Of a DNA stretch of 64,000 bases, positions 1,880-63,535 are shown piece after piece. The stretch spans positions 19,201,546 through 19,265,545 of the forward strand of contig JASCQW010000162.1 in the NCBI GenBank assembly GCA_030264375.1, given 5' to 3'. Made by a program: the position numbers and the translations under genes. How positions within the stretch are numbered: the first letter of the stretch is position 1; every line of letters starts with the position of its first letter. Below the pieces are notes generated by a model. The model saw only the letters and a list, made by a program, of their open reading frames with translations, did no database searches and had not been told where the DNA came from. Origin of the DNA: Carcharhinus longimanus. Taxonomy: Eukaryota.

Positions 1880-3398
1880 GAGAACACACGGCGCGGGCTG
1901 TGCGAATAGTAATGAATGGCGGCGACATCTCTCCTTTACTACGTTGCGCAGCCAGGGGGGACTCGCTCGCTTATCTAAGGAGAGGCAAGGCAGTGAGTGA
2001 GTGGACAAGGGGAGTGGGAGTGAGTGAGAGTCTGGAGAGGAACCCAGCCTGGGAGAAGAGGTGGGGGGTAGAGGGTAGGGGGCGGCGGGGGGGTGGGTGA
2101 GGAGGGGGAAAGAGGAGGAATGATTGACACCTTATCCAGGGGGGAGAGAGAAGAGGGGGGGGCAGGAGGAGGCAACAACATTCCAAAATAGAACGTAAAC
2201 AAGAGAGTCGGCGGCCAATGATCGGCGGGGGACGGGAGGGGGGGCGGGGTCGTGGGGGGGGGGGGGNNNNNNNNNNNNNNNNNNNNNNNNNNNNNNNNNN
2301 NNNNNNNNNNNNNNNNNNNNNNNNNNNNNNNNNNNNNNNNNNNNNNNNNNNNNNNNNNNNNNNNNNGGGGTGAGGGGGGGGTGAGGTCGGAGGGGAAGGC
2401 CTCCGCATGGACACCTTGTCCAAAGACCACACTCCGGGCACTGCAGCACCGGGGTGGGGGGGGGGGGCGGCGGGAGGGAGGATTGAAGATTCCCGTGTGG
2501 GGATAACACGTCTTTTTATGTTTGGAGTGTGTTGCCCCCCACCTCCCCCCCACCCCCCCACCACCACCGCCCCAATCCCACGCAGAGAAACTCTCACCCA
2601 CCTTATTTTTTTAAAATTTTAAACACTTGGTTCCTTCAAGCTGCCTCCCGTTGGGGGCGTCTTTATCTGGGAGCCTACCGCGGGACGGGCAGAGGATCCA
2701 GTTAGCAGCAGTTGCTTTGCGATGCCACCTCTTAATGTCTGCCATCTTGGCACCGGTGGCATCGAGCGAATGCTATAGTCTGCAGCGTTTCATTTGTGCG
2801 TCGATTTTTTTTGTGTGTGTGTGTTTTTCTTTCCACTCTTGTGCGTCGCAAGCCTTAGTGGCCTGGCTGGCACAGGTTTGCCAAGGCGCTGTAGGGTAAC
2901 TAATGTATTTGATCTGATGGTGGGTGCAGGTGGCACGAGAGATGGTATGCAGGAGCTAATCAGGTTTGCCAGTGCCATCTGTCAGTGCCAGAACATCTGC
3001 TGTGAAGGTGACCCTGTCGCCCTTTGTTAAAGTTATGAGTTTGGCATTTATATCAGCGACACCAGCGCAGATAGCAGGCAGCGTGGAAGAGAGGGGGGGG
3101 GTTTGAGGAGGGGGGGAGTAGAGTTTTTTTTACTCACATCGGGCTGCGCGCTTCTTGTGGCTGGGTTATTGGAGGCGGAAAAATTAACAGGCGGTTTTTC
3201 CAAATATATATATATTTACATTAATAAGGAGAACTCGGTAAAAGTCGCCCCGAGTGTGTGGGTTTTTTTAAAAAAACAATTTCTTTCTCTCCGTCGTTCG
3301 GAGGTTTTTTTATTTGTTTTGTAATTTAATTTAATTTTTTCTCTGTCAGGGTTGTCCGCTCTCTCTCTCTCTCTCTCTGTGTCTCCTCACACGGCACG
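1880..3398 (+). promoter_or_regulatory. IRS1 promoter, CpG-island region and long 5'UTR
   Basis: GC- and CpG-rich with G-runs. Contains GTAAACAA (FOXO element) at 2195-2202, CCAAT at 2215-2219 and a GC box GGGGCGGGG at ~2241-2249, all directly upstream of the IRS1 ATG. The TSS cannot be fixed from sequence alone. Confidence 0.6.
3359..3378. repeat. (CT)n microsatellite in the 5'UTR
   Basis: A run of about 10 CT units about 20 nt before the ATG. Confidence 0.9.
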
Positions 3399-6300
3399 AT
3401 GGCGAGTCCGCCTGAGCCCAGCTCGCCGAGCGCCGACAGCTNNNNNNNNNNACAGCTTCTCGGACGTGCGGAAGGTGGGCTACCTGCGAAAGCCCAAGAG
3501 CATGCACCGGCGCTTCTTCGTGCTGCGGGCGGCCAGCGAGCTGGGTCCGGCCCGTCTCGAGTACTACGAGAACGAGAAGAAATGGAGGCACAAGGCGGGC
3601 GCTCCCAAGCGCTCGGTGCAGCTGGAGAGCTGCTTCAACATCAACAAGCGGGCCGACTCCAAGAACAAGCACCTGGTGGCCCTCTACACCCGCGACGAGT
3701 ACTTCGCCGTGGCGGCCGAGTGCGAGAGCGAGCAGGAGGGCTGGTACCAGGCGCTGCTGGAGCTGCACAACCGCGNNNNNNNNNNNNNNNNNNNNNNNNN
3801 NNNNNNNNNNNNNNNNNNNNNNNNNNNNNNNNNNNNNNNNNNNNNNNNNNNNNNNNNNNNNNNNNNNNNNNNNNNNNNNNNNNNNNNNNNNNNNNNNNNN
3901 NNNNNNNNNNNNNNNNNNNNNNNNNNNNNNNNNNNNNNNNNNNNNNNNNNNNNNNNNNNNNNNNNNNNNNNNNNNNNNNNNNNNNNNNNNNNNNNNNNNN
4001 NNNNNNNNNNNNNNNNNNNNNNNNNNNNNNNNNNNNNNNNNNNNNNNNNNNNNNNNNNNNNNNNNNNNNNNNNNNNNNNNNNNNNNNNNNNNNNNNNNNN
4101 NNNNNNNNNNNNNNNNNNNNNNNNNNNNNNNNNNNNNNNNNNNNNNNNNNNNNNNNNNNNNNNNNNNNNNNNNNNNNNNNNNNNNNNNNNNNNNNNNNNN
4201 NNNNNNNNNNNNNNNNNNNNNNNNNNNNNNNNNNNNNNNNNNNNNNNNNNNNNNNNNNNNNNNNNNNNNNNNNNNNNNNNNNNNNNNNNNNNNNNNNNNN
4301 NNNNNNNNNNNNNNNNNNNNNNNNNNNNNNNNNNNNNNNNNNNNNNNNNNNNNNNNNNNNNNNNNNNNNNNNNNNNNNNNNNNNNNNNNNNNNNNNNNNN
4401 NNNNNNNNNNNNNNNNNNNNNNNNNNNNNNNNNNNNNNNNNNNNNNNNNNNNNNNNNNNNNNNNNNNNNNNNNNNNNNNNNNNNNNNNNNNNNNNNNNNN
4501 NNNNNNNNNNNNNNNNNNNNNNNNNNNNNNNNNNNNNNNNNNNNNNNNNNNNGGGGAGGCGGTGGAGGAGGAGGAGGAGGAAGCGGCGGCTGCCGCCTGC
4601 ACCCGCCCCTCAATCACAGCCGCTCCATCCCCATGCCGTCCACACACTGCTCGCCGTCGGCCACCAGCCCCGTCAGCTTGTCCTCCAGCAGCACCAGCGG
4701 CCACGGATCCACCTCGGACAGCCTGTTCCCCCGCCGCTCCAGCGCCTCCATCTCCGGCTCCCCCAGTGACGGGGGCTTCATCTCCTCGGACGAGTATGGA
4801 TCCAGCCCTTGTGATTTCAGGAATTCCTTCAGAAGTGTCACTCCAGATTCCTTGGGGCACACTCCTCCAGCAAGGGAGGAACAGGAGTTAAATAATTACA
4901 TCTACATGGGCAAACACTCGAGCCTGGCTCCCAATTGTCAGAACAGGGGAACTCAAAGGTGGACCCCTACTAAAGCTGAAGATGCAGACTCAGATAAAGG
5001 GTTCAGGAAGCGAGCTCATTCATCAGGTACTTCGCCACCCACAGTGATGCACCAAAAGACGCCATCTCAAACTTCCACTGCCTCCTTTGAGGAGTACACA
5101 GAGATGACACCCTCTTACCCCAGCAACCGTCTGTCGTCCAGTAAAAATTCTGCTTTTGTACCTACACGTTCGTACCCCGAGGAGTGTTTGGATCTGCAAA
5201 TTGGGGAAGGCAGGCGTTACAGCCAAATGGATGATGGTTATATGCCCATGTCACCTGGAGTAGCCCCTGTGCCCAGTAAAAATGACTACATGCCAATGAG
5301 CCCTAAAAGTGTTTCTGCCCCCCAGCAGATTATTAACCCGCGCCAGCACTCTCGAAAAGATGGTTATATGATGATGTCACCCAGTGGCAGTTGCTCACCA
5401 GAAAATGTGAATTATGGAAAAATATGGACTAATGGAGGGAATTCTAAGCTGTCTGTTGAGAGCAATGATGGGAAATTGTCCTGTAGCGATTATATAAATA
5501 TGTCCCCTGCAAGTTGCTCAACAACAAGCACTCCACCAGACTGCTTCTTCAATCCAGTTGAAGAACCTCATAAACCTGTTTGTTCGTACTTCTCATTGCC
5601 TCGCTCCTTTAAACATGTACATAGAAAAAATGATGAGTCCCCTTTACGAATTGCTGTAAATTCAGGCCGCCTCTTGTATGGTGAGGATTCTTCTTCATCC
5701 ACAAGCAGCGATAGTTTAGGAGGACAGGATGGCGGGCATCATACAGTTAACCCCGTTAAAAAAGAATTGTATGTACCAATGAAAGGTAAACTTGTGCGGC
5801 CCACTAGGCTATCACTTGATAATACTAAGGCAAGTACGCTGCCCAGAACACGAGAGCATCCCCTTCCTCCAGAGCCAAAAAGCCCAGGCGAATATGTAAA
5901 TATTGAATTCAATGACAAAACCTTTTCTTCTAGTTCATTGTCTCTTGTTGAGTCCTCTTCAGTTGGAGGCATTCATCCTGTTCAACAAAGGCCACCCATG
6001 TCTGAATACATGAATATGAATTTAAGAATAGATGCATCCAAGTTTGGCTATGTATCAAAACCCACAGTGGACATCACCAGCTCTGCAACTGCCTGCAAAT
6101 CCAGCACTTGCAGAAAAGATAGAGGGCAGTCGAGCTGTGATTATGTTAGTATGCAGCTAGTTACCACCTGCCCAGACTTACTGGATTCATCAGTGAGTAA
6201 CTATACGGAAATGACAGTTGGTGGAGGTATAACGTCTTCCATTTCCGTTCTACCTCGGGCAGAAGAGAGCTCTTTGAGCACTGTTTCTGATGTTGTGACT

Positions 6301-6752
6301 GGTCCAATGATCGACCAGATCCCTGGGAGGAGTGCCTTTACCGTGCTTAATCTTGTCCCCAATCGGAACCAAGGTGCCAAAGTTATCCGTGTTGATCCTC
6401 AAGGAAGAAGAAGACATAGTTCAGAGACTTTCACTTCCACAGCCAATGTGACTGGCATGACATTATCTTATGTTGATCACATTAAACGACAAACCAGGAG
6501 AGTCTCTGGCTTCAAGTGCCAAAGACCAGCCAAATGATGCCACAGTGCAGAAAAATGATTGTGAAAATGGTATGAATTATATCGATTTGGACTTGGTAAA
6601 TGATTTTAATAACAAAGACTGGACCTCCTCTCAGCATGTAACCGCTCATCAACCTCATGGAAGTACTTCTGGTGGTGATGATGATCTGAATTCATATGCA
6701 AGCATTACCTTCCAGAAGCCAGATGAAATCAGTAAGCCTACAGAAAGGGAAG
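3399..6752 (+). CDS. IRS1: Insulin receptor substrate 1, coding exon 1 (10-N gap shifts the frame at 3442-3451; PTB domain lies in the N gap 3776-4552; +1 frameshift at ~6490)
   Basis: ATG 3399 is in a strong Kozak context (ACGATGG) and begins MASPPE. The PH domain FSDVRKVGYLRKPKSMHRRFFVLRAASE...WYQALLELHNR is nearly identical to mammalian IRS1. Further IRS1 hallmarks are RLHPPLNHSRSIPMP...GSPSDGGFISSDEYGSSP, PI3K motifs YMPM/YMPM/YMMM, the Grb2 motif PKSPGEYVNIEF and RRRHSSETF. The +1 frame continues with NYIDLDL and YASITFQK (SHP2 motifs). Donor AG|GTAAGG lies at 6752/6753. Confidence 0.97.
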
Positions 6753-35071: not shown

Positions 35072-35191
35072 TCACCTGATGAAGGAGCTGTGCTCTGAAA
35101 GCTTGTGATTCCAAATAAACCTGTTGGATTTTAGCCTGATGTTGAGACTCTTACTGTGCCCATCCCAGTCCAAAGCCGGCTTCTCCATATC
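35072..35191 (+). mobile_element. Penelope-like short repeat (family 1) carrying a minimal hammerhead ribozyme motif at 35072-35108
   Basis: TCAC-CTGATGA-A-GGAGC-TGT-GCTCT-GAAA-GC-TT-GTGA, followed by CCAAATAAACCTGTTGG...CCAGTCCAA. The same family occurs at 53760-54008 and 55383-55583. Confidence 0.7.
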
Positions 35192-47939: not shown

Positions 47940-49760
47940 AAGGAGGAGGCCATTTGACCCAACATACCTGCACTGGCTCCCCAAACAAGCAACTTAACCT
48001 AGTGCCATTCCCCTGCCCTTTCCTAGACCCCACACATTATTTCTATTCAAATAATCATCTAATGCCCTCTTGAATGCCTCAATTGAACCTGCCTCCACCA
48101 CACTTCCAGACTGTGCATTCCAGATCCAAATCACTGAAAAACAATTTTTCGGACATCATATTTGCATCTTTTGCAAATCATTAAGTCTGTGCTTTCTTGT
48201 TCTTGATCCTTTTAAGAGCAGGAACAATTTCTCCCTTCCTACTCTGTCTAGACCTTTATGATTTTGAATATCTCTATCGAATCTCCTCCAGGAAAGAAGG
48301 TGGCCAAGGAGAACAGCCTCAACTCCTCCAATCTATCCTCATAACTGAAGTTTCTCATTGCTGGTACCATTGGAGAGAGTGCAGAAGTTCACAACAATGT
48401 GTTCACAATCTACCTGTAGTGTGTCTCCTAGAACTGTACACAATACTCCAGCTAAGGTTGAACTAGTGTCTTGTTTAAGTTCAGCATAACCTCTGGGCTG
48501 TGATGAACAGTCATCCAGACTTGAAACATTAGCTCTGTTCTCTCTCCACAGACACTGTCAGACTTGCTGACATTTTCCAGCATTTTCTGTTTTGTTTCAG
48601 ATTCCACCATCAGCAGTAATTTTGCTTTTAACTGCCATGCTCTTGCACTCTACGCCCCTATTAATAAAGCCCAGAATTCTATTTGCTTTATTCACTTGCC
48701 TCTCCCATCTGTCCATACCTGCGATGATCTATGCACTTATACATCCTGGTACCACTGCTTCTCCAACCCCTTAAGAAATTTACCGTTTACTATATATTCT
48801 TCCTACCAAAATACATCACTTTACCCTCATTGACCTTCCATCTGCCATCTATCAGCCCATTCCACCAACTAATGTCTTTCTGAAGTCCTGCGCTGTCCTT
48901 TAGAAGCCCTGCACCATCCTCTTCACACTTCACAATGTTTTCAAGTTTCAAGTGTTGTTGTTCACAAGCTTTGAAATTATTCCCAGAACACCAAGATCTA
49001 GATCATTAACGTACATCATGAAAAAAACCTTTGGGGAACACCACTAAACACCTTTCTCCAGCCCTAAAAATATCCATTGACAATCATTCTCTGCTTTCTA
49101 TCTTTCACCCAATCTTGGACCCACTTTGCTATTATCCCTTTTATTCCATGAGTTGTATAACTTTTTTTTCAAGTCTGTTTTGTGGCACTGTATTGTATGC
49201 CACCTGAAAGTCCATGCACACCACATCAACAGCATTATCCTCATTGATCCTTTGTTACTTCCTCAAAAAAACTCCAAGTTTGTTAAACACAATTTCCCCT
49301 TTGGATATCCGTCTTGGTTCTTCCTAATTAACCCACGTTTTTCTGTGTACTAATTCTATCCTGAATAATTGTTTCTCGAAGCTTGCCCACTGTTAAGCTG
49401 ACTGATCTGTAATTGCCGAGGCTATTGTTGCAATCTTTCTTGAACAAGTTCGTAACATTTATATTTCCTCACCTCCTCCAAGTCTTAATATCTATCTCCT
49501 TTTTCATCCAGGGAGTACTTCGTTTTTTTGCCTTACCTTTCCCTTTTAGGAGAATATACCATGACCAAATCCAGACCATTTGTTTTGAAGGTAGCCCATT
49601 ATTTAGCTACAGTTTTTCCAGCCAACTTTATGTTCCAGTCTAACCAGCCCAGTTCCATTATTGTCCCATTGAATTCAGCTCTCTTGCAGTTAATTATTTT
49701 TATCTGGATTGCCTATTTTCCTTTATCTATCATCATCATAAACTTTATAATACAATGATA
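47940..49760 (-). mobile_element. CR1 LINE, fragmented and decayed
   Basis: Reverse-complemented CR1 ORF2 and 3' remnants, including a YMDF-like segment near 49210 and a QHGF-like segment near 49290-49310. Confidence 0.6.
48496..48630 (+). mobile_element. Penelope-like short repeat (family 2) with a degenerate hammerhead motif
   Basis: GGCT-GTGATGA-AC-AGTC-ATCCA-GACT-T-GAAA-CA-TT-AGCT, then CTCTCCACAGA...TTTCCAGCATTTTCTGTTTTGTTTCAGATTCCA. Same family as 57092-57232. Confidence 0.6.
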
Positions 49761-51042: not shown

Positions 51043-52636
51043 CGATATAAAATATAAAGAGAGCGAAAAATGTCTGTGCACGTTGTCCTCTTTATGAACC
51101 CTGAACAACTTTTCCTTCACATGAAATCTTATTTAATTAACTCTACTGCACCGTATTGTCAAAACTTGTTGATCAATCTGGATTAGAATTTGGAACTGAT
51201 CAGATCTAATCTTTTATTCTAAGTTCCCTTGATTCTGAAGAAATTCTCTGCTTGCTTTGTTTCACCTTTAGTTCTGCAGTGTATAACAAACTTCTGGTTT
51301 TCTATCACAATTGTGCTTTAACAATAAATTGAGCTTTTAAACCCTTAAGAATAGTAGGTAGTTTGTTTCTTGTTGAGTAACTAACTCTAGGAATCAAAAT
51401 TAAAAATGTGTTAGGTGCCAGCACTAGGTCATGAGTTTTAAAATCAAAGTGCCTCCATCTGAGAGCTCACTGAAGACCTGATTGTTGTCTGTTTCTCATC
51501 AAAATGATGTGTTTGTGTATTTGCTGACTAACTAGAATTTTTTTTGTGTCGCTGTATACTAATGGAAAATTAGTTTTGCAATGATAGCATTGTTTTGGTT
51601 AACTCACAATGTCTTTCAAACATTCAGTTGGGGAGTTCCTGGGAAAGTAACAATGTTCCCATTGCGTTTCCCAGAGAGGGTTGAAAACTCGTACAGGATA
51701 TGCCAAAGTAGTTGGACTGCAGTCATAATTAAATACTTGAAGATGCTAAAAGACATGGGAAATTCACAAGGAAATTGGCTTAAAGTAGGTGCTCTGGTAA
51801 AAGTACTACTAATATAGGCATAGGCCTAATGACTTCCTGTATTGAGATTTTTTTATGGAAGTTTAGTGGCTTGGTGGTGTTCAATAAAAAATATATTCTT
51901 GCAATTCACTTAAAGATACCAGATATAAATGTGACTAAATAGCCTTTTTTCTGACTGCAATTAATGCTCCCTACAAAAAGTTCCCTCATTGATAGAATTA
52001 GTCATTGGTCTGTCATTAATCTGCTCTTAACTTCATTGACTGTGCCTGTGGTTGAAAACCTGCTGTTGCTAGTATATAGAATTGAATTGCTGTGCTACAA
52101 CAACAGTCCACCATGAATTGCTGTGCTGCTGGAAAACATGCATGTTAAAATTGAAGGATTGGGTTTGGGCACCATAGAATAATATGACCAGTATATATTT
52201 GTAAATCAGTGCGTTTTTCAAAAAATATTCTGATTAATGCATCTGCTGATCGGAAGTGCTAGAGAAAAAACACACGTAAATGAACACAAACTTTTAACAC
52301 AATATTATGGCCAATCTTTATATTTATATAGAGCTGTGTCTAAATATTACCACAAGTTTTGATTTGATTTTGAGATGTGCTCAAAAGAATGTGCTCATCC
52401 TTGTTGTTAGGCATTTTTGCTTATTGGGGTTTGCCTCTTGACCCATGGAGGTTATTCACATCTTTGTACTTTCTTCAAGCTAGATGAGATATAAACTAAA
52501 CAGCCAAAAACAATTATGAAATTACTAAAAATGTGTATTCCACTGGTGAGAAACTGCTAGGAATCAGGATTATCATTTTATAAAGTTAAAGAATGTACAT
52601 CCTTTAAAGTGTTGTTAAAGGATTAAAGATTTTCAT

Positions 52637-52948
52637 AGATTAGAATCATAGTCTCATCTGCACTGTAGGGATTTTTTTCGGCTCATCGAGCCTGTACTGA
52701 CAACAATTCCACCCAGGCCCTATCCCCATAACCCCATTTATTTATCCCAGTAATCTCCCTGACACTAAGGGGCAATTTAGCATGGCCAATCAACCTAACA
52801 CTGTGACGTGGGAGGAAACTGGAGCACCCAGAGGAAACCACATAAACACAGGAGAATGTGCAAACTTCACACAGACAGTGACCTGAGACCAGAATTGAAC
52901 CCAGGTTCTTGCGCTCTGAAGCAGCAACGCTAATCACTGAGCCACCCA
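52637..52948 (-). mobile_element. HE1-like V-SINE
   Basis: Head, V-domain and tail are present. The tail segment TCTGCACTGTAGGGATT is locally inverted. Confidence 0.8.
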
Positions 52949-53426
52949 TTGGAGAGGATATATGACCAAGAGAAATTGGGACCTGATATGGAGTTTGTGT
53001 GAATCCAGCAAGGAGAGTTGAGAAATCAAGACTGGAGGTGACAAAAACGTATGAGGTGATGATGAGATTGCTTTTGTTTCAACTTAAAGTTGTGGAAACA
53101 GGAAGATGCAACTATGTAAAGAAAAAGAAATCTAGTGGGACTCTAGGTGCATAATAGATCTGGTTTTCTTCTGAATCTTCAAATTACCTTGCTTTACCTT
53201 GGGTTGGAGGAATTACCAGGTTGGCTTCACGACAGATGACCAAGTAGACCACACAGCTAGCATCGTGTAAATCTTTCTTTGTTCTCCCAGCCTTTACGGT
53301 GACTGAACACTACATATAGTTTAATATCTGGAACTAGTGAGTCATAGAGAAACAAACTAAAATTCCAACAAGTTCCTGTGACCTTACTGTACATGTTAAC
53401 TTAAATGCTGACCATCACAGAAGGAT

Positions 53427-53735
53427 TAAAAGTTTAAAGTTTAAGTTTATTTATTGGTCACAAGTAGAAATATATTAACACTGCAATGAAGTTACTGTGA
53501 AAACCCCCTCGTTGCCACACTACGGCGCTGGTTTGGGTACACTCGGAGAATTTGGCATGGTCAGTTCAGCTAACCTGCACATCTTTGGGCTGTGGGAGGA
53601 AACCACAGCACCTGGAGGAAACCCATGCAGACACAAGAAGAATGTGCAAACTCCACACAGACAGTGACCCGACCCGGGAATCGAACCCAGGTCCCTGGAG
53701 CTGTGAAGCAACAGTTCTAACCACTGTGCTGCCAA
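53427..53735 (-). mobile_element. V-SINE, tail type B
   Basis: AACACTGCAATGAAGTTACTGTGAAAACCCC...GGGAATCGAACCCAGGTCCC...TAACCACTGTGC. Confidence 0.85.
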
Positions 53736-53759
53736 GCCACCCCACAGTATCGACAATGT

Positions 53760-54008
53760 GAGAGGAGAGGTACATTATTTGTACCTTTAAGACTTGATTA
53801 GCTGTAAAGACTTGCATTCCAACCATTACCTTGTAAATTAAGTTTGTGTCTGTATATGCTCTGGTTGTGAACACAAGCCTTCACTCACCTGATGAAGAAG
53901 CAGTGCGCCGAAAGCTTGTGCTGCCAAATAAACCTGATGGACTTTAACCTGCTATTGTAAGACTTCTTACTGTGTTTATTCCAGTCCAACGCCAGCATCT
54001 CCACATCA
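53760..54008 (+). mobile_element. Penelope-like repeat (family 1), longer copy, with a hammerhead motif at 53885-53920
   Basis: TCAC-CTGATGA-A-GAAGC-AGT-GCGCC-GAAA-GC-TT-GTG, then CCAAATAAACCTG...CCAGTCCAACGCCAGCATCTCCACATC. Confidence 0.65.
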
Positions 54009-54009
54009 C

Positions 54010-54295
54010 TGATTAATGGACAGGGAGCAGAGATTAAGGATAAGCAGGGAATTTTCAAGTTGGCAGGCTGTAAGTAGTGGTGTTGCAAGGATCAGTGCTG
54101 AGGCCTCAGCTATTTGCAGGCTATATCATTGATTAGCCAGAGAGATTGAGAGCACCGTATCCAAGTTTGCTGATTATACAAAGTCAGGCGAGAATGTAAG
54201 CTATGAGGACCACATCAGGAGATATAAACACATGGATACAGAGAAATAGTACATGGATAACATGATAACAGATGGAGCATAATGTGGGTCATGTA
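54010..54295 (+). mobile_element. CR1 RT fragment
   Basis: WQAVSSGV.QGSVLRPQLF and SKFADYTK remnants. Confidence 0.65.
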
Positions 54296-54319
54296 TGGTT
54301 ATTCACTTTCGTAGAACAA

Positions 54320-55376
54320 TGAAGAACAGAGAACAGTAAAGTACAGGAACAGGCCCTTTGGCCCTCCAGGCCTGTGCCAATCCTGATACCATCCTAAACC
54401 AAAACCATATGCACTTATGGAGTCCCTATCCTTCCATTCCATNNNNNNNNNNTCATCCAGATGCCCCGTAAATGCTGCTATCATACCAGCTGGGAGCTCC
54501 CTGAGCAGTGCGTTCCAGACATTCACCACCCTCTGCATAAAAAAACCTGCCTTGTACATCTCTTCTAAACATTTCCCCACGCACTTTAAATCTATGTCCC
54601 CTTGTATTTGACTTTTCTACCTAGGAAGGAACATCTGACTATCCATTCCGTTCATGCCATTCATAATCTTGTAAACGTCTATCAAGTCACCCATCAATCT
54701 CTGTTGTTCTAGTGAGAAAAAAGTGAGTTTCTTCAACCTCTCCTCAGAGGCAATACCCTCCAGACCAGGCAACATCCTGGTAAACCTCTTCAGTACCCTC
54801 TCCAAAGCATCCATGTCCTTCTGGTAACGTGGTGACCAGAATTATATGCAATATTCCAAATGAAGCTTAACTAAATTCTGCACTGTTGCAGCACAACCTA
54901 TCAAATTTTATACTCAATGCCCTGACAAATGAAGGCAAGCATGCCATATGCCTATTTGACTACCTTATCCACCTGCATGGCCACTTTTACTGACCAGTGT
55001 ACATGTACGCCCAGATCTCTGGCTGACAATACTCCCAAGGGTTTTGCCATTTACTGTATAATTCCTACATGCATTGGACGTTCCAAAATGCATGACATCA
55101 TATTTGTCTGGATTAAACTCCACCTGACATTTCTCCACCCAAGTCTCCAACCGCTCTATATCTTGCTGTATTCTCTGACAATCCTCTTCATTATCTGCAT
55201 GTCCACCAATTTTTATGTCATCTGTGAACTTACTAATGAGGCAGTTAAATTTTCCTCCAAATCATTTATATATACTATGAACAACAGAGATCCCAGAACT
55301 GATCCCTGTGGAACAATGCTAGTCACAGCCTTCCATTCAGAAAATCACCCCTCTACTACTACCCTCTGCCTTCTAT
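54320..55376 (-). mobile_element. CR1 LINE, 3' ~1 kb
   Basis: ORF pieces ALERVLKRFTRMLPGL, FFMQRVVNVWNAL and QVEFNPDKYDVMHFG, a reverse-complemented VPQGSVLG motif at ~55290-55315, and a CR1 tail. Confidence 0.9.
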
Positions 55377-55382
55377 GCTCCA

Positions 55383-55583
55383 TAAGACATCTCACAACAC
55401 TAGGTCAAAGTCCAATAGGTTTATTTGGTAGAACAAGCTTTCAGAGTGTCACTCCTTCTTCAAGTGAGTTTTCAGGTGACACTCCGAATGCTTGTGCTAC
55501 CAAATAAACCTGTTGGACTTTAACCTGGTGATGTGAGGCTTCTTACTATGCCCACCCCAGTCCAATGCCAGCATCTCCACTTC
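55383..55583. mobile_element. Penelope-like repeat (family 1) in an inverted (fold-back) configuration
   Basis: 55383-55467 is the reverse complement of the family-1 unit, including a hammerhead-like motif. 55476-55583 is a forward, 5'-truncated copy. Confidence 0.75.
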
Positions 55584-55779
55584 ATTTTACAGTAGGGCAG
55601 ACCGTGGACTTTTGACAGAATCATGGCTCAGTTAAGGACTATAAATGGCCAGTCAATGGCCCCCTAAGGGCCTTTCCCCACCCAGTCTCTATTTTTGATG
55701 GTGGGAAATAGGAAAAGTTCTCACGCTTGGGCTGGAAGGCGGAGGGGGGGCTTAACTGGCAGGCCCCTTCCAACTGGGG

Positions 55780-55960
55780 GCTCCCTCTGGGACTGAAGAA
55801 CTGGAATCCTGGAACTCCCTTCCTAAAGGCACAGTGGTGCATCTACACCACATGGACTGTAGTGGTTCAAGGAGGTGGCTCATCACCACTTTCTCAAGAG
55901 CAATTGGAGATGGGCAACAAACATTGGCCTTGCCAGCGATGCACATATCCTATCAAATAA
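55780..55960 (+). mobile_element. LINE 3' tail fragment
   Basis: TGGAACTCCCTTCCT...GTGGTTCAAGGAGGTGGCTCATCACCACTTTCTCAAGAGCAATTGGAGATGGGCAACAAAC. Confidence 0.6.
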
Positions 55961-57091
55961 AAACTTGTCTGATATACTGCTGACTGGCAGGGTTATAATC
56001 TCCCTTGATGTGTCAGTTGAGCTTTCGTCACCAGCCTCCTTATGTTTTGAAAGCTTTGAAATAACAATCTGAGTTATATGCGCAGATATTGCTTTCTTTG
56101 ATTAAGGTATGGGCAGCAGTTATTGATAGGTTTAGTGTACAAGAATGGAAGTCACTCTTAGTGACAATCAGTCAAAATACACTCGTGTTCTTGACAGAGC
56201 AGTTCTATGGAACAATCAGCACTGTGATTTATGGAAAGACCATGGGTGGAGAAATCATCAATATTTTTGACAGAATGGATGGGATAGGCAGCTTTAAATT
56301 GTGATTGAATGAGTAAAGCTAAATTCATTCAAATGGAGCAGTTACAATGCAATTAAAAAAAGCTCTAGGCAAAAAGTTCTCAAATAGCACCAAGTGATTT
56401 ATGTGACGTGTGAAATATTGAAAGAATGGTCATTGTATTGAGCAGTTTAAAACTATTAACAATAAAGAAATACATAGGGGATAAGGCCTAAGGTCATTTC
56501 ACTCAGTTATTAGACTCATCCAAGTTCCAATATAAAAGTAAGTGATGTAATATTACAGGACAGCTTTTGTTATTTTCACCAGGATTTATAGAATTAGAAG
56601 CAGGAGTAGGCCATTCAGCCTTTCAAGCCTGCTCTGCCATTCACCTCTATCATGGCTGATCATCGAATTCAATATTCTTACGCCCCGCCCCCCTCATCCT
56701 GGATTTTCCTCCCACAGATTGAGAGGAATTTGCTCTGTCTTGCCCTTGATCTTATCAGGAGAGTGGGGAGGTGACCAAGATGAATGGAGAAAAAGCTTCC
56801 AGTACACGTGCTTTCTCACTGGAGACAACAGAGACTAACACCAGAAGGGCAGGGAGTGTATTCTAAATTGGGGCACCTCAATGCCAATTTATCACATATA
56901 GCAGATGTTGTTCTGGGCATCAAGGTGGCATCATGGAGTCGATCAGCTTTGCCTTTGGGGGCCACAGTCTCTAACTACTGAAAGTAGTGATGAAGGTTAA
57001 ATAAGATCGTTAAAAAGCACAACTGTTTGGGATCAAGTTGAGAAGTGTTTGCTCGTGCAGATCCTTGATTAGACCACATTGCTGTGAATAG

Positions 57092-57232
57092 TGGATAAAA
57101 ACAAATTACTGCAGATGCTGGAATCTGAAACCAAAAGAGAAAATGCTGGAAAATCTCAGCAGGCCTGGCAGTATCTGTAAGGAGGGAAAAGAGCTGACGT
57201 TTCGAGTCCAGACCACCCTTTGTCAAAGCTGT
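57092..57232 (-). mobile_element. Penelope-like short repeat (family 2) with a U3-A8 variant hammerhead motif at 57192-57230
   Basis: Minus strand reads AGCT-TTGACAA-A-GGGT-GGTCTGG-ACTC-GAAA-CG-TC-AGCT, then TTTCCAGCATTTTCTCTTTTGGTTTCAGATTCCAGCATCTGCAGTAATTTG. Confidence 0.7.
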
Positions 57233-59470
57233 AAATAGTTCTGCTCTCCAGATTACTAAAATAATATTGAAGAAGATATAACAATGACATATCAGGAAGA
57301 TACTGAAACTGAAAGTTTATATCCATCAGGGCAGAATGAATGGACTGGGATTCTTTAGAATAAAGGAAACTGTAGAGCGACCTCATAAGAGTCTTTATGA
57401 TTGTAATGGGTTTGCTAGGATCAACACGTAATGAAGTTGTTTCTACTAGAACCAGATACCAGAAACCAGAAACTCCTTATCCAAAGAGATTATCTCTCTC
57501 TCTCTATGACATAGTCATTGTTTTACAACTGCAAAATGCCTTGGGACATTTTGTTATGATAACGGTACAATATAAATGTAAATCATTATTGTTGCTGTTA
57601 GAATGTGGGACTTGTGACCATAGGAGTGGTTCAGTTGAATAGCATTTAAGAGAATTCAAATAGACACATGCAGGAGAAAGGAATGGAAAGGTATGGTGAT
57701 GGTGGGTATTTCAGATGAAGAAGGGTGAGAAGTGCTTCAGGTGAATCAGAAACACCAGGATCACCAGTTGGGCTGAATGGCCTGTTTCCATGCTGCAAAG
57801 ACTATGAGTGGCATTTAATAAAAGCATCAGAGATTTCACCTCCCTGCTCTCGGGAATCCTGCCGAGTCACCTCCTTTTAGGAAGGCCAGCAGAACTTAGT
57901 GCCAGTCAGGCACTCAGTGGGGCAATGGCAAGCCTTTGCTGGGTCAAGGATCCCAGGGTGGAACTGATGCTCTCCCAAGAGCCANNNNNNNNNNNNNNNN
58001 NNNNNNNNNNNNNNNNNNNNNNNNNNNNNNNNNNNNNNNNNNNNNNNNNNNNNNNNNNNNNNNNNNNNNNNNNNNNNNNNNNNNGTGCTAATCACTGTGC
58101 CACCGTGCTGCCCATTGCTTTCATCTTTGAATCTTACATTCAAAAGTGTGTTTGTCATTGTGCTTCAGTCTAACAGTCATGTTTCTTCGAAGTCTGCTTA
58201 CAATAAAGTATCATTCTTTTTGCACAATTTTATAAGTTTTTAAAAATTCTCACTGACAAGCGTATTCTATGATTTTTGACCAAATATTTTGGAATCCTGT
58301 ATTCTTTATTCTGGTGAACTGTACTGTACTGATTTTTATAGAGACCTAACTCTAATGTGAAGTCCATGGTGTTCTGAAGAAAGTTTTGTGAACAATGCAA
58401 AATCATACAGAAAGTTGGTGCACACTCAATATTGTCGGAATACACAATTTATTCCTGTTTATTCTTCAATTTGTGGTGTCAATTGTACCTTTGTCCTCAA
58501 CAGATCAATTAACATTGTGACCCACTAGATACCTCCCTTCCAGATTTTTGAATTTCTTAGATGGACCAATCCAGACTCACTCTCTCTCTCTCTCTCTCCN
58601 NNNNNNNNNNNNNNNNNNNNNNNNNNNNNNNNNNNNNNNNNNNNNNNNNNNNNNNNNNNNNNNNNNNNNNNNNNNNNNNNNNNNNNNNNNNNNNNNNNNC
58701 CCCCCTCAATACTCCTTTTATGCCCTTAACTATTTGAAGCCTTTGTACAGATGCTGTGGTGGGATAAAGACCATTCGTTCAACATTAGCAAGAGACAGCA
58801 TATATCTTGTATGGCCTCATCGAGATGTCCATGTACATTTTTCCTTCATTATTTCTACTACATTTGACAGTTTGTATATTGAAAAATTAGTTGCTGCATA
58901 ATGGTTGTCAGGTGCTGATGGAAATGCAAACTATAGTAAATATTCTGTCTTGGCTCGTCCTGAGAAATTGCATATGACTGCCATTTAATTTGCTTTCCTT
59001 CCTGAGTACTATAATTATATGTAATTAGGTACATTATTGAAATGACACAACCTGATTTGGCTGCTAAAAAAACTATTGACCCTAGTTAAACTCTTTCATT
59101 CTACAAACTCATTTGTATTATAGAGCAACCTTTCAGAGCTGTTGTACACTGAGTTCCATCGCCTGCTGATAAAATGAGCCCAATAGCAAAGGTATAATGA
59201 AATAGAAAAACAGGGTGGAAATAGGATCAGAAGTATTCATAGCTACCTCTTGCCTCTGCTTTCTGACCTTGTCAAACTTTTGCATTTGTCTTTAGTAGTA
59301 GTTAGCAAAACTACTACTAAAGCAAAAGGCCTAGCCCAGAGCAAAATAATTCATAAAGCCCTACATGTGCACTGGTGATCTAATTATTTTTGACCAGTAT
59401 TACTCTATTGGGTCCAAGAACTGCAGTTCTGGAAGAGATCTGAAGTTGCAGTCAGAATTAAACGAAGATA

Positions 59471-59915
59471 GACTTGCACATATGTGGTGCCTTTTGCAAC
59501 ATCAGAAGTCTCAAAGTCCTTCCCAGCTAATTAAGTACTTTTGAAGTATAGTCACTCTTGTAATAAAGGGAACACAGCCGCCAATTTGTTCACACAAGGT
59601 TCTACAATGTTATAATGACCAGATAATGTTTTTGTGATGTTGATTGAGGGATATATACTGGCTAGACTTGGGAGGTAACTCCCCTGCTCCTTGAAACAGT
59701 CCAACACTGGCATCCCACACTTTGAAACAGTGCCGTGGGGCCTTTTATATCCATCTGAGGGCAGATGGGATCTCAGTTTAATATTCCATTGGAAAGATGG
59801 TATCTCCGATAATACAGCTTCCTTAGTACTGCACTGAAGTGTCAGCTGTAAAAATTTGTTTTGTGCTTGAGCCTACAACCTTCTGATTCAGAAACAAAGT
59901 GTGACTGAGTCATGA
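59471..59915 (-). mobile_element. DeuSINE (SacSINE1-like)
   Basis: Reverse-complemented Deu-domain (CAAATTGGCGGCTGTGTTCCC...AGTGACTATACTTCAAAAGTACTTAATTAGCTG) with a tRNA-like head remnant near 59870-59915. Confidence 0.75.
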
Positions 59916-60077
59916 CTGAAATTTTTGCTTTGCTTTCATTATTGCCACAGTTTAGTGATAGGAATAAATGGCTTCTGGTTTCTTGATGGGGGAAAATTAT
60001 CAATATTCATTGTTGATCATTCAGTTCTGTTTTTAAGTGGAAAGTGGAGCTCAATACATAACAGCATGCAAGCCAAA

Positions 60078-62565
60078 TTAATGTATGTCTTGTCTGGCTT
60101 GCCATATTTTGCAAGCCAGTGCATTATGGGATCACAGGATCCACGTTTTCTTAGTTTGGTTGCTAAAGCAATAAAAGATAGTTGCCGTGTTAATCACCAC
60201 CTGTGTCTACATGGTATTGATTAATCTTTGAAGGATACCAGGACCAAAACAGAACAAACCTTTGTGGTAATGCTACTCAAAATGAAACTAAAGTAACAAA
60301 ACTTAATTTTTCAATTGAACCACATGTTGGATTTGTACTGCATGGTATAAAAGGGCCAGCAGTGAAAAACAGGGATCTGCAGAATTTGGAGCAAAAGGAA
60401 ATCTACAGCCTTTAAAACTAAAATGAAACTGCGGTATAATTTGTAAAGAACTGCAATTGTCATTTTTCTTTTATTTTTAAATTTACTGAGCCATCAGAAG
60501 TGCTGTTGCTTTAAGTTTTTAAAAAAAATCAGAGGGACACTCATAAAAATGGAAAGGAGTTAGGAAAAAGAAATAACTGGTGAAAGAAAGCTGGTCCCGA
60601 TTGGACAGTTAATCCACCAGGATCCTGAAATGCTCTACAACTTGCAAATTGTGAAGTTAGGGCTCAAACATGCCCTCTGGTGTGGAGAGACCCAAGGCAT
60701 TTGCTAAATGGACTTTATAAGTAAAGCCGAGAGCTGATATACTCCAAATAGAAGGTGAAGCAATGGGGATCATTTTCAGAAACTGGAAATTTCGTCTATA
60801 CCTGTTTGGATAGAAATTCACACTCCTGACTGACCAGCGACCATTCACCTCTGTATTGGGACCACACACGTACCTAATGAAGGGATACGAGTAGGATATA
60901 ATGTTGGGCGTTGATGTTGAATGCTCGTACGTGACAAATACCAAAAATCTTGCATGGCATTGCTGATGGTCTTTTGAGGCTGCCCCTACCAGTCAACTAT
61001 AGGGACACTGCTCAAAAAAGCATCACCTACGTTGCACACATGGAGAACACATCCGTCACTTCGGTCCAAATTGAGAAGGCCATTTGAATGCACCCAACAT
61101 TGTTCGTAATGGCCTTTCTGATGCGTGGCAACTCTTCCCTGGACTTCCAAGTCTCACCTTCTTCATCCTTATGTTTCCAGAAAGATGGAGGTTAACAGTC
61201 ACTTCAGGATGTTTGCTTTGGGACAGCGTTGGACCAATTGTATTCGAAATACTGGAATAGTTCACGTGAAGGAAGTCTCAAGAAGCTACTTCCATTAGCC
61301 TGGCCAGGACTAATACATTGAAGCTAAGGAAGATCTGTTCTTTGTCAGAATTTGAAAAACATGGTTCAATCCCTCCATCCATGGGATTGTCTGGAAAACT
61401 CTTGGCAGTGCGTCCATGTCAGTCTTGCTGGTCCATTTGAAGTAGTGATGTTTATGGTGGTTATGGGTGCTTTTCCAAATGGCCAGAAGTTTCTGTGATG
61501 TCCTCAGTGCTGAGTGTACAATTCAAAGGCTAAGAAAAATTTTGACTCATCATGGTTATCAGAAGAATTTGTGACAGCCAACGGACTTCAATTTGTCTGT
61601 CAGAAGTGTGAGAATTTTTTGAGATGGAGTAATGGAATTCACCACATCATTTCAGCACATACCACCCATCCAACAATAGAGCAGCAGAGAGATTTGTTCA
61701 AACCATGAAACATGCTTTAAGGGCATTATAAGGACGTTCCTCAATTTGAGGCCTTCTGGACATGTTTCTCCTGGCATACAGAAACATGCCACATGCTACA
61801 ACTAAAGCATCTCCAGCATTCCTATTAATGGAATGGCAACTGGGAACTTGCTTTGATCTGTTGAAACCAACAAAAACACGACAGATTATGCAAGATCATT
61901 AGCACGACCAAGTGGAACGAAGAGCGCAAAGATCAAAGCCAAGAATATTCTGTTCAGGACAAGAGGACCCAGCTCATAATTATGCTACCGGAACTAAATG
62001 GGTTCCTGCTGCTGTGATTGCATAGACAGGATTTGTTTCGAACACTGTTCAAACAGCAGATGATCTCACCTGGTGGAGAAATGATGACAAACTGTTGCCA
62101 AGTCGAGCATCATGTAAGGATACACCTCTAATGAAAGAGCCTGATTTCATCACTTCCAGTGATCTCCAAGTCATGGAATGCCGACTCCAGCTTCACCTCA
62201 GTCTAGTTGAAGTTATTGCATCTTCAGCATTAGACATAACTTCAGATTCAGCTACAAGTCTTAAATTGTCATCAGTCTCCAGTGAGCATTCCTCTGTAAA
62301 AGCACCAGATGTCCCAGAAGCAAAGAAAACCTCCTGAGTCTTGAATCAGAACATGTTTTGTTAAGCTGACATTTTCAGGCTGGAGGAATATGTTATGCAT
62401 TGTATACCTTGTCTGACTTAGTGTACTTTGCAAGCCAGTGCATTATGGCATCGCAGGATCCATGTTTTCCCGTTCGTTCAATTGCTGAAGGATAATTGCA
62501 TGTTAATCACTTCCTGTGTCTATGTGGTTCTGATTAATCTTTGAAGGGTACCAGGATCAAAAACA
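60078..62565 (+). mobile_element. Internally deleted Gypsy-type LTR retrotransposon with both LTRs and an integrase remnant
   Basis: Direct repeats at ~60078-60257 and 62391-62565 (TTTGCAAGCCAGTGCATTATGG...GATTAATCTTTGAAGG.TACCAGGA.CAAAA). A PPT-like GGAGGAA precedes TG at 62391. Integrase remnants are LAGPFE, FSKWPEV, VTANGLQF, AAERFVQTMK and FLLAYRNMPHATT. Confidence 0.85.
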
Positions 62566-63387
62566 CGGTGCATGCTCTAACTGTATATCCTCACTATAAG
62601 TTACCCCACTTAGGACATTGTTCTTTAATGTCCTTCACTGTTTTAGCTTTTTTTGTTTGATGTTGCCATTTTCAATTATAAGTCATCTGCACTCTACCTC
62701 CTCACCCCCACCTCGTGCTGCATACTGGGCTAACTACCATCATATTCAGGGGCTGGTGCTGCTGCCACAGTCATCCGAAGCCCACGCTTTGGGGAGAGTG
62801 AGGCGTGCGATTCAAGAGCAGGAGTGCAGGCAGGGATGGGAAACTGCCACTGTTAGTTATGTAATGACCGAGACATTGGGAAAGGAGGAAGAGCGATGCA
62901 GAGTGGGAGGGACAGCTGGAAGGGGAAAGGTGGGGGGGATGGGGGGCGAAAGGGAATGTGAGAGTGGAAGAGGGAGGTTCAGGAGTGCTGCGGGTGAGAC
63001 TCAGAAACTGTGCTGCACAGGGCTCGTTTCGGGCAGAAAATTAAGTTAAGGACATAGTCGGGTCAGCCACAATTCTGTTGAATGGCCTAGTCCTTTTTTT
63101 TATGTATTGTTATGAAAATGCAGTTGTGTACTTTGGAAAGCACTGTATAAAAAAAATTAATGACATTCATTTGCTAATAATGCTGGTTCTTGAAAGGCAA
63201 GGTTAAAAAGATTTCACTTTTTCATTCTCAGTGTTTCNNNNNNNNNNNNNNNNNNNNNNNNNNNNNNNNNNNNNNNNNNNNNNNNNNNNNNNNNNNNNNN
63301 NNNNNNNNNNNNNNNNNNNNNNNNNNNNNNNNNNNNNTCAGTGTTTCACGTAGATGTGCATAACTTTGATTATATGTAACTTATAAA

Positions 63388-63535
63388 AGAAAATGTTGGA
63401 AATACTCAGCAGGGCTTGCAGCATCAGATAGACTATTGTTCATCTCTCCATAGATATTGCCTGAGATGTTGAGTATATACAACAATTTCTGCTTTTATTT
63501 CAGATTTCCACCACCACGCAGTGTTTTGCTTTTGT
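63388..63535. mobile_element. Penelope-like family 2 remnant in fold-back form (hammerhead deleted)
   Basis: TGTTGGAAATACTCAGCAGG..GCAGCATC is followed by its approximate inverse GATATTGCCTGAGATGTTGAGTATATACAACA and TTTCAGATTTCCA. Confidence 0.55.

Follow-up and report, generated by a model that had tools for sequence, protein, structure and literature searches.

The window analysed here, a stretch of 64,000 nucleotides from Carcharhinus longimanus, carries on its minus strand (57192..57230) a minimal type I hammerhead with a U3-A8 core, recognised from the letters of the window together with the state of its repeat family. To judge from these sequences, the motif most probably is the hammerhead of a Neptune-type Penelope-like retroelement, a ribozyme that was likely kept and whose U3-A8 pair became fixed in one subfamily; the lone copy in the window is likely inert, a side product left by reverse transcription.

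Minimal hammerheads of metazoan Penelope-like elements were defined by Cervera and De la Pena 2014 (PMC4209133), who described them as inactive as monomers and weakly cutting as dimers. The same paper reports U3-A8 in the Schistosoma mansoni Penelope element Cercyon (about 1,300 hits). Several scattered natural hammerheads with U3-A8 cores were described by Perreault et al. 2011 (PMC3088659), which also cites work reporting that such cores are active in vitro. The novelty of U3-A8 that a first-pass annotation of the window had implied is therefore not supported, because these natural U3-A8 cores were already in print. PMC4209133 is not known to name sharks, and its supplementary file 1 may list fish motifs. 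Our literature search, which covered mostly open-access journals, found nothing on the shark U3-A8 subfamily or on transcripts that start at helix I. The swap leaves our knowledge of hammerhead chemistry unchanged, and what it contributes is a single high-copy example from a vertebrate. Of more use is a side result, in that the ends of the copies map the likely start of the RNA and point to an uncut template.

The motif, its parent element and the window copy

Read from 57230 to 57192, the minus strand matches the first-pass annotation letter for letter. The motif opens with the 5′ arm of helix I (AGCU, 57227..57230), which is also the 5′ end of the copy and the inferred start of transcription, and continues into the core U3 U4 G5 A6 C7 A8 A9 (57220..57226). 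Helix II and its loop follow (57204..57218, with arms at 57218-57215 and 57207-57204). The GAAA (57203-57200), a palindromic ACGU that stands in for helix III and the GUC triplet together occupy 57196..57203, and the letters of the 3′ arm of helix I (AGCU) lie at 57192..57195. Counting the first A as +1, U3 is at +5 (57226) and A8 at +10 (57221), and the predicted cut falls between 57196 and 57195, following +35. U4, G5, A6, A9 and GAAA are all intact. An extra A sits between positions 9 and 10.1 (57219), and it is A in all 45 copies that cover both core positions among 100 copies collected through an anchor downstream of the cut. In the window copy, helix II has four base pairs, one of them G.U, as was first read, whereas the family state is five base pairs with a 5-base loop (C at +17 in 39/45 copies); the window copy lacks the fifth pair because of a private C-to-G change at 57214. 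Among the same copies, the ACGU palindrome (15.2-16.2) decays as a CpG does (C in 35/45, G in 20/45). The Watson–Crick 3-8 pair, the short helix I (4-5 bp) and the closure of helix II by G10.1-C11.1 are features of Penelope-type minimal hammerheads, and this anatomy, together with a position in a pLTR, bears out the earlier assignment to that type. A search based on CUGANGA would indeed miss the motif, as had been anticipated, and ribozyme surveys should permit U3-A8 cores. An Rfam search of window positions 52000-62000 (E up to 10) gave 11 weak matches, none of them to a hammerhead family.

The motif forms the first 39 bases of a solo copy of 138 bases (57093..57230, minus strand) that comprises the 5′ leader and tail of the element. 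In longer copies, the sequence continues upstream with a TATA box and the remnant of a GIY-YIG domain. The full Penelope layout is seen at one locus (L122), which has an inverted copy, an upstream pLTR with the hammerhead, ORF remnants and a downstream pLTR, whose hammerhead copy follows the upstream one by 3.2 kb. The unit of the window copy forms the end of these pLTRs, in a tandem element with reverse transcriptase (RT) and GIY-YIG remnants. At a second locus (L246), a frame of 433 residues lies ahead of a U3-A8 motif and comprises an RT, a CX2CxxC linker and the start of a GIY-YIG domain. In Pfam, this frame matched RVT_1 (E 1.5e-4) and GIY-YIG (E 0.008), both below the curated cut-offs, and seven shorter frames of L122 gave no Pfam matches. 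A sequence search of the PDB with the 433-residue frame gave no relevant match. At E up to 1e-10 the frame has 314 relatives, of which many carry RT or GIY-YIG domains; the closest named ones come from sharks and rays (49-58% identity), in keeping with the shark retroelement family that was first proposed. None of 150 scored matches contained an intact ORF. A CX2-5CxxC zinc finger within the linker that joins RT to endonuclease is described as marking Neptune and Nematis and as absent in Penelope/Poseidon (PMC8557442). The CX2CxxC motif can be read in both L122 and L246, and L122 shows the Neptune layout of a partial tandem, an inverted 5′-truncated copy and a 30-40-base tail. We thus label the element Neptune-type, a label that draws on the linker motif and the vertebrate host. 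In inversion junctions of the family (L004, L011, L018, L023 and others), the point of joining is often the self-complementary AGCT of helix I, which looks as if a new DNA end folds back and self-primes.

The shark motif resembles Cercyon-type hammerheads in many ways: it has no true helix III, a palindromic 15.2-16.2, the extra base 9/10.1, G10.1-C11.1 and a helix I of 4 bp, and it shares with them the location in pLTRs, the predominance of solo copies, inverted pairs and the U3-A8 swap (PMC4209133). It differs in its host, which by its protein relatives is a cartilaginous fish, in being Neptune-type, and in a helix II of 5 bp rather than 7-8 bp. Perreault's variants show the same 3-8 covariation as scattered examples, whereas in the shark it characterises a high-copy retroelement subfamily, whose motif is minimal and lacks helix III (PMC3088659). 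Non-LTR retrozymes (bioRxiv 10.64898/2026.07.22.740005) also combine a type I hammerhead with a short non-coding unit and are kin to Penelope pLTRs. They are described as tandem arrays, whereas the window copy stands alone, dispersed and flanked by a target duplication. No tandem repeat, and with it no retrozyme-type array, was found at its locus.

The window copy includes an optional tail of ~37 bases (57093..57130, minus strand), which lies between two preferred 3′ ends of the family, and it has no TATA box. It is flanked by a target-site duplication of 12 bases, whose upstream copy (57228..57239, minus strand) overlaps the element start by its last 3 bases and matches the downstream copy (57081..57092, minus strand) at 11 of 12 positions. 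One DNA sequencing run contains the junctions of the element with both flanks, at ~2-3% differences, and the insertion is therefore not confined to this assembly; no empty insertion site was seen among the sequencing-run data. The search of the shark's own genome gave 3,071 candidates, of which 40 were scored; the 39 best-scoring other copies are 92-96% identical over ~140 bases (query bases 21-174). As these were chosen by likeness to the window copy, they were not used to judge the core. No hammerhead partner was found nearby: the window plus 10 kb on each side gave only a copy at 48497 and a fragment at 63385-63427. Taken together, the window copy is likely inert. The copy at 48497 is a decayed solo of the C3-G8 sister subfamily with a G at position 3 (48497-48630, plus strand), and decayed inverted fragments of an older related repeat occupy 63385-63533. 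The window also contains a large IRS1-like coding exon with assembly gaps and a PH domain (3325-6537, plus strand; match to human IRS1 at E 9e-59), on the strand opposite the window copy. The remainder of the window is probably a long intron of this IRS1-like gene.

The U3-A8 pair within the family

Within its subfamily, U3-A8 is the rule rather than an oddity of one copy. A pattern search of the genome that left positions 3, 7 and 8 free found it in 313 of 333 copies, and every one of the 45 anchored copies covering both positions carries it. U3-A8 is therefore the state of a subfamily and not decay. The first-pass annotation had proposed to ask whether U3 and A8 co-occur as the majority state, which they do, and had named decay from a CUGAYGA consensus as an outcome that would overturn its reading, which these same counts refute, as nearly all copies share both changes. 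We accordingly give next to no weight to the idea that the changes are private decay of the window copy, for which only the general CpG decay of such repeats could be cited, or that the motif is a chance match. In the latter case, a descriptor of the motif matched the real window twice, and a set of 300 random sequences with the window's length and dinucleotide frequencies once in all, with the reservation that it had been written to fit the window motif and so favours it. A looser pattern gave 2,808 matches, the first 100 of which comprise, by hand count, 62 with U3-A8, 23 with C3-G8, 12 with C3-A8 and 3 with U3-G8.

A sister subfamily retains the canonical pair. Among the first 100 of its 315 matches, counted by hand, C3 is present in 93 and U3-A8 in only 1, and positions 7-8 read CG in 31, TG in 29, CA in 32 and otherwise in 8. 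The nearly equal numbers of TG and CA are the signature of CpG decay, which argues that the sister master was C3-G8 and that the C3-A8 copies arose from it by such decay. The older families in the tree are also C3-G8; a pattern search for one older family returned only 6 copies. The tree comprises 56 copies, namely every one of the 28 rows that are not U3-A8 and 28 of the 138 that are, and was built with the two positions 3 and 8 masked. It recovers a clade of 32 rows that contains 25 of the 28 U3-A8 rows and no C3-G8 row, with 100/99 support that is rough given the few columns. The masked tree and the C3-G8 of the older families therefore indicate that the swap is derived and took place once in the lineage. 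Two copies with the sister backbone (L071 and L251) are also U3-A8.

The two subfamilies differ at six of the 39 bases, and all six differences fall where change is tolerated: both bases of the 3-8 pair, two bases in the loop, position 17 and one base of helix I, where G.U has become A-U. Across the families, helix I also shows a C-G/U-A double change. The covariation signal itself is modest: its score, which comes from 9 distinct rows, is equalled in 28 of 500 shuffles, and 2 of the 9 rows are unpaired at 3-8. G8 has changed to A in about a third of the sister copies, and the sole A8 lineage that spread also carries U3. U3-A8 was likely selected. The selection claimed by the first-pass annotation is to this degree upheld, with the qualification that the swap is a single event in the lineage; the modest covariation and the two sister-backbone copies with U3-A8 also tell against it. 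Among the sequencing runs listed as carrying the sequence, none was recorded as RNA. In contigs of four sequencing runs whose RNA status was guessed, no other letter occurs at either core position among the matches listed, and there is a weak hint that other organisms share the U3-A8 subfamily. In run X5, which holds another organism's contigs, most depth at position 17 of one copy (L002:1535) is U rather than C, hinting at an intermediate or a different subfamily there.

Copy ends and the start of the RNA

The 5′ ends of copies probably record where the RNA began. Of the 100 anchored copies, 21 were dropped for a run of N at the junction, leaving 79 informative ones. Copies that start at -5 to +5, where helix I begins, number 29 against 6.25 expected (P about 3e-11), and 19 of the 79 reach at least 10 bases upstream of +1. 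A peak of 5′ ends was also sought at the cut site and is absent, with 4/79 within 3 bases against 4.0 expected (P 0.56). The clustering at helix I and the background level at the cut together indicate that uncut RNA is likely the template. An absent peak does not amount to absent cutting, because cut molecules may be broken down or turned into circles. TATAAA is retained in 27 U3-A8 copies, and in 22 of them it stands exactly 30 bases before +1; three C3-G8 copies with a diverged spacer have it at 29-31 bases before +1. The transcript thus likely starts with helix I of the hammerhead. The 3′ ends of 88 gap-free copies fall largely into two clusters ~36 bases apart, with 32 at +100/+101, which coincides with the edge of the anchor, and 29 at +134 to +137. 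Seen from both ends, reverse transcription appears to start inside the RNA at two sites and to run off an uncut 5′ end.

This arrangement resembles that of PAc, a Poseidon element of Anolis carolinensis, whose hammerhead was reported to cut only with its protein, and for which uncut RNA is the main template and there are two internal start sites (Frangieh et al. 2024, PMC11167929). Both elements have two internal RT start sites bounding an optional 30-40-base tail, both appear to use uncut RNA as template and in both no RNA ends lie at the cut site. The core of PAc is C3-G8 and overlaps the start codon, whereas the shark U3-A8 core lies at the inferred RNA start, well before the ORF remnants. 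An uncut template fits the findings of this study, the sole one carried out in vitro on an element of the kind, and narrows the range of purposes that these hammerheads may serve.

A canonical C3-G8 minimal hammerhead at 35072-35108 (plus strand), in a repeat that extends to ~35190, belongs to an unrelated and far more abundant Penelope-like family, with 17,273 exact matches of a 30-base word from its tail. Its copies, too, tend to have their 5′ end at helix I, with a TATA-like box ~30 bases upstream, and show the same pattern more weakly: of the 54 that were informative, 14 have their first base at -5 to +5 and 4 have it near the cut. A head-to-head inverted pair of this family lies at 55411-55580, with its hammerhead partly deleted; weak Rfam microRNA matches at the same place are explained by the inverted repeat.

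Cleavage, competing readings and a possible role

Structure predictions do not favour the active fold. The 39-mer alone is predicted to keep helices I and II with a probability of about 0.9. In the lowest-energy monomer fold, G5-A6-C7 is paired with GUC, and for leaders of 100-138 bases the hammerhead fold is not predicted, with helix I at a probability of 0.01-0.04. The dimeric double hammerhead is predicted to be less stable, by 8-13 kcal/mol, than the dimer of lowest energy. For the hammerhead to be active, some help would thus be needed. An alternative hairpin created by the core changes (CUUU with AAAG) was considered as the reason for the swap and discarded, its predicted probability being 0.00.

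On the reading that we prefer, a kept ribozyme in a Neptune-type element, the first transcribed base would be the one with which helix I opens, 30 bases past the TATA box of the upstream pLTR, and the monomer would fold its core onto the cut site and stay uncut. The enzyme of the element would nick the target and begin reverse transcription from an internal site of the RNA, near +100 or +138, and on reaching the 5′ end of the RNA would leave solos of 100-140 bases such as the window copy. Cutting after GUC would need a second copy or the protein of the element. In tandem or protein-bound transcripts, the hammerhead would cut at +35 and trim long precursors to unit length. A8 may have arisen at a hypermutable CpG, and would have spread only together with U3.

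The U3-A8 hammerhead might instead be a relic without a useful cutting rate, in an element whose transposition needs no cleavage and whose double change was fixed by drift, through CpG decay at position 8 and a chance transition at position 3. We regard this as unlikely. In its favour, the swap is one event only, G8 has very often become A among the sister copies (32 of the first 100) and uncut RNA is the likely source of the genomic copies; moreover, insertion of the anole element in vitro is reported to be unimpaired by hammerhead mutants (PMC11167929), and Naiad elements are described as multiplying without canonical hammerheads (PMC8557442). Against drift, all six subfamily differences are compatible with the structure and the invariant core bases are untouched, no C3-A8 master lineage is visible although the C3-A8 change is common, and the same pair swap recurs in unrelated hammerheads (PMC4209133, PMC3088659). 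Less likely still, and in our view quite improbable, is that cutting is not the main task of the motif and that it acts at the RNA's 5′ end chiefly in a structural or promoter capacity (as a start site, a site of protein binding or a 3′ splice site). Helix I does begin at the inferred start, after a pyrimidine run and AG in both subfamilies; in Drosophila virilis, an intron end is reported to map to helix I (PMC4209133) and the promoter to be internal (PMC2377424). Such a role is harder to reconcile with the retention of the 3-8 pair, which catalysis needs. Furthermore, the solos have no upstream exon in common and some target duplications abut A+1 (as at L165), so the AG belongs to the RNA.

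Within the kept-ribozyme reading, we tentatively suggest, as a possibility that we still consider doubtful, that a hammerhead at the start of the RNA is a self-decapping switch in shark Penelope-like elements. If the transcript begins with the hammerhead, a cut at +35 would remove the cap. Uncut, capped RNA would be translated and would also be the source of the strong-stop-like solos of 100-140 bases that fill the genome, while cut RNA would be destroyed, or circularised to make full-length copies. The layout with the hammerhead at the start is seen in three families here. If the switch were true, the U3-A8/C3-G8 sister pair would be a natural test of whether core strength tunes it. Separately, three sites with a pyrimidine run and AG that resemble splice acceptors can be read at 57230-57120 (minus strand) and, in longer copies, upstream of it: one at +2, one ahead of an ATG at ~+57 and one in the tail.
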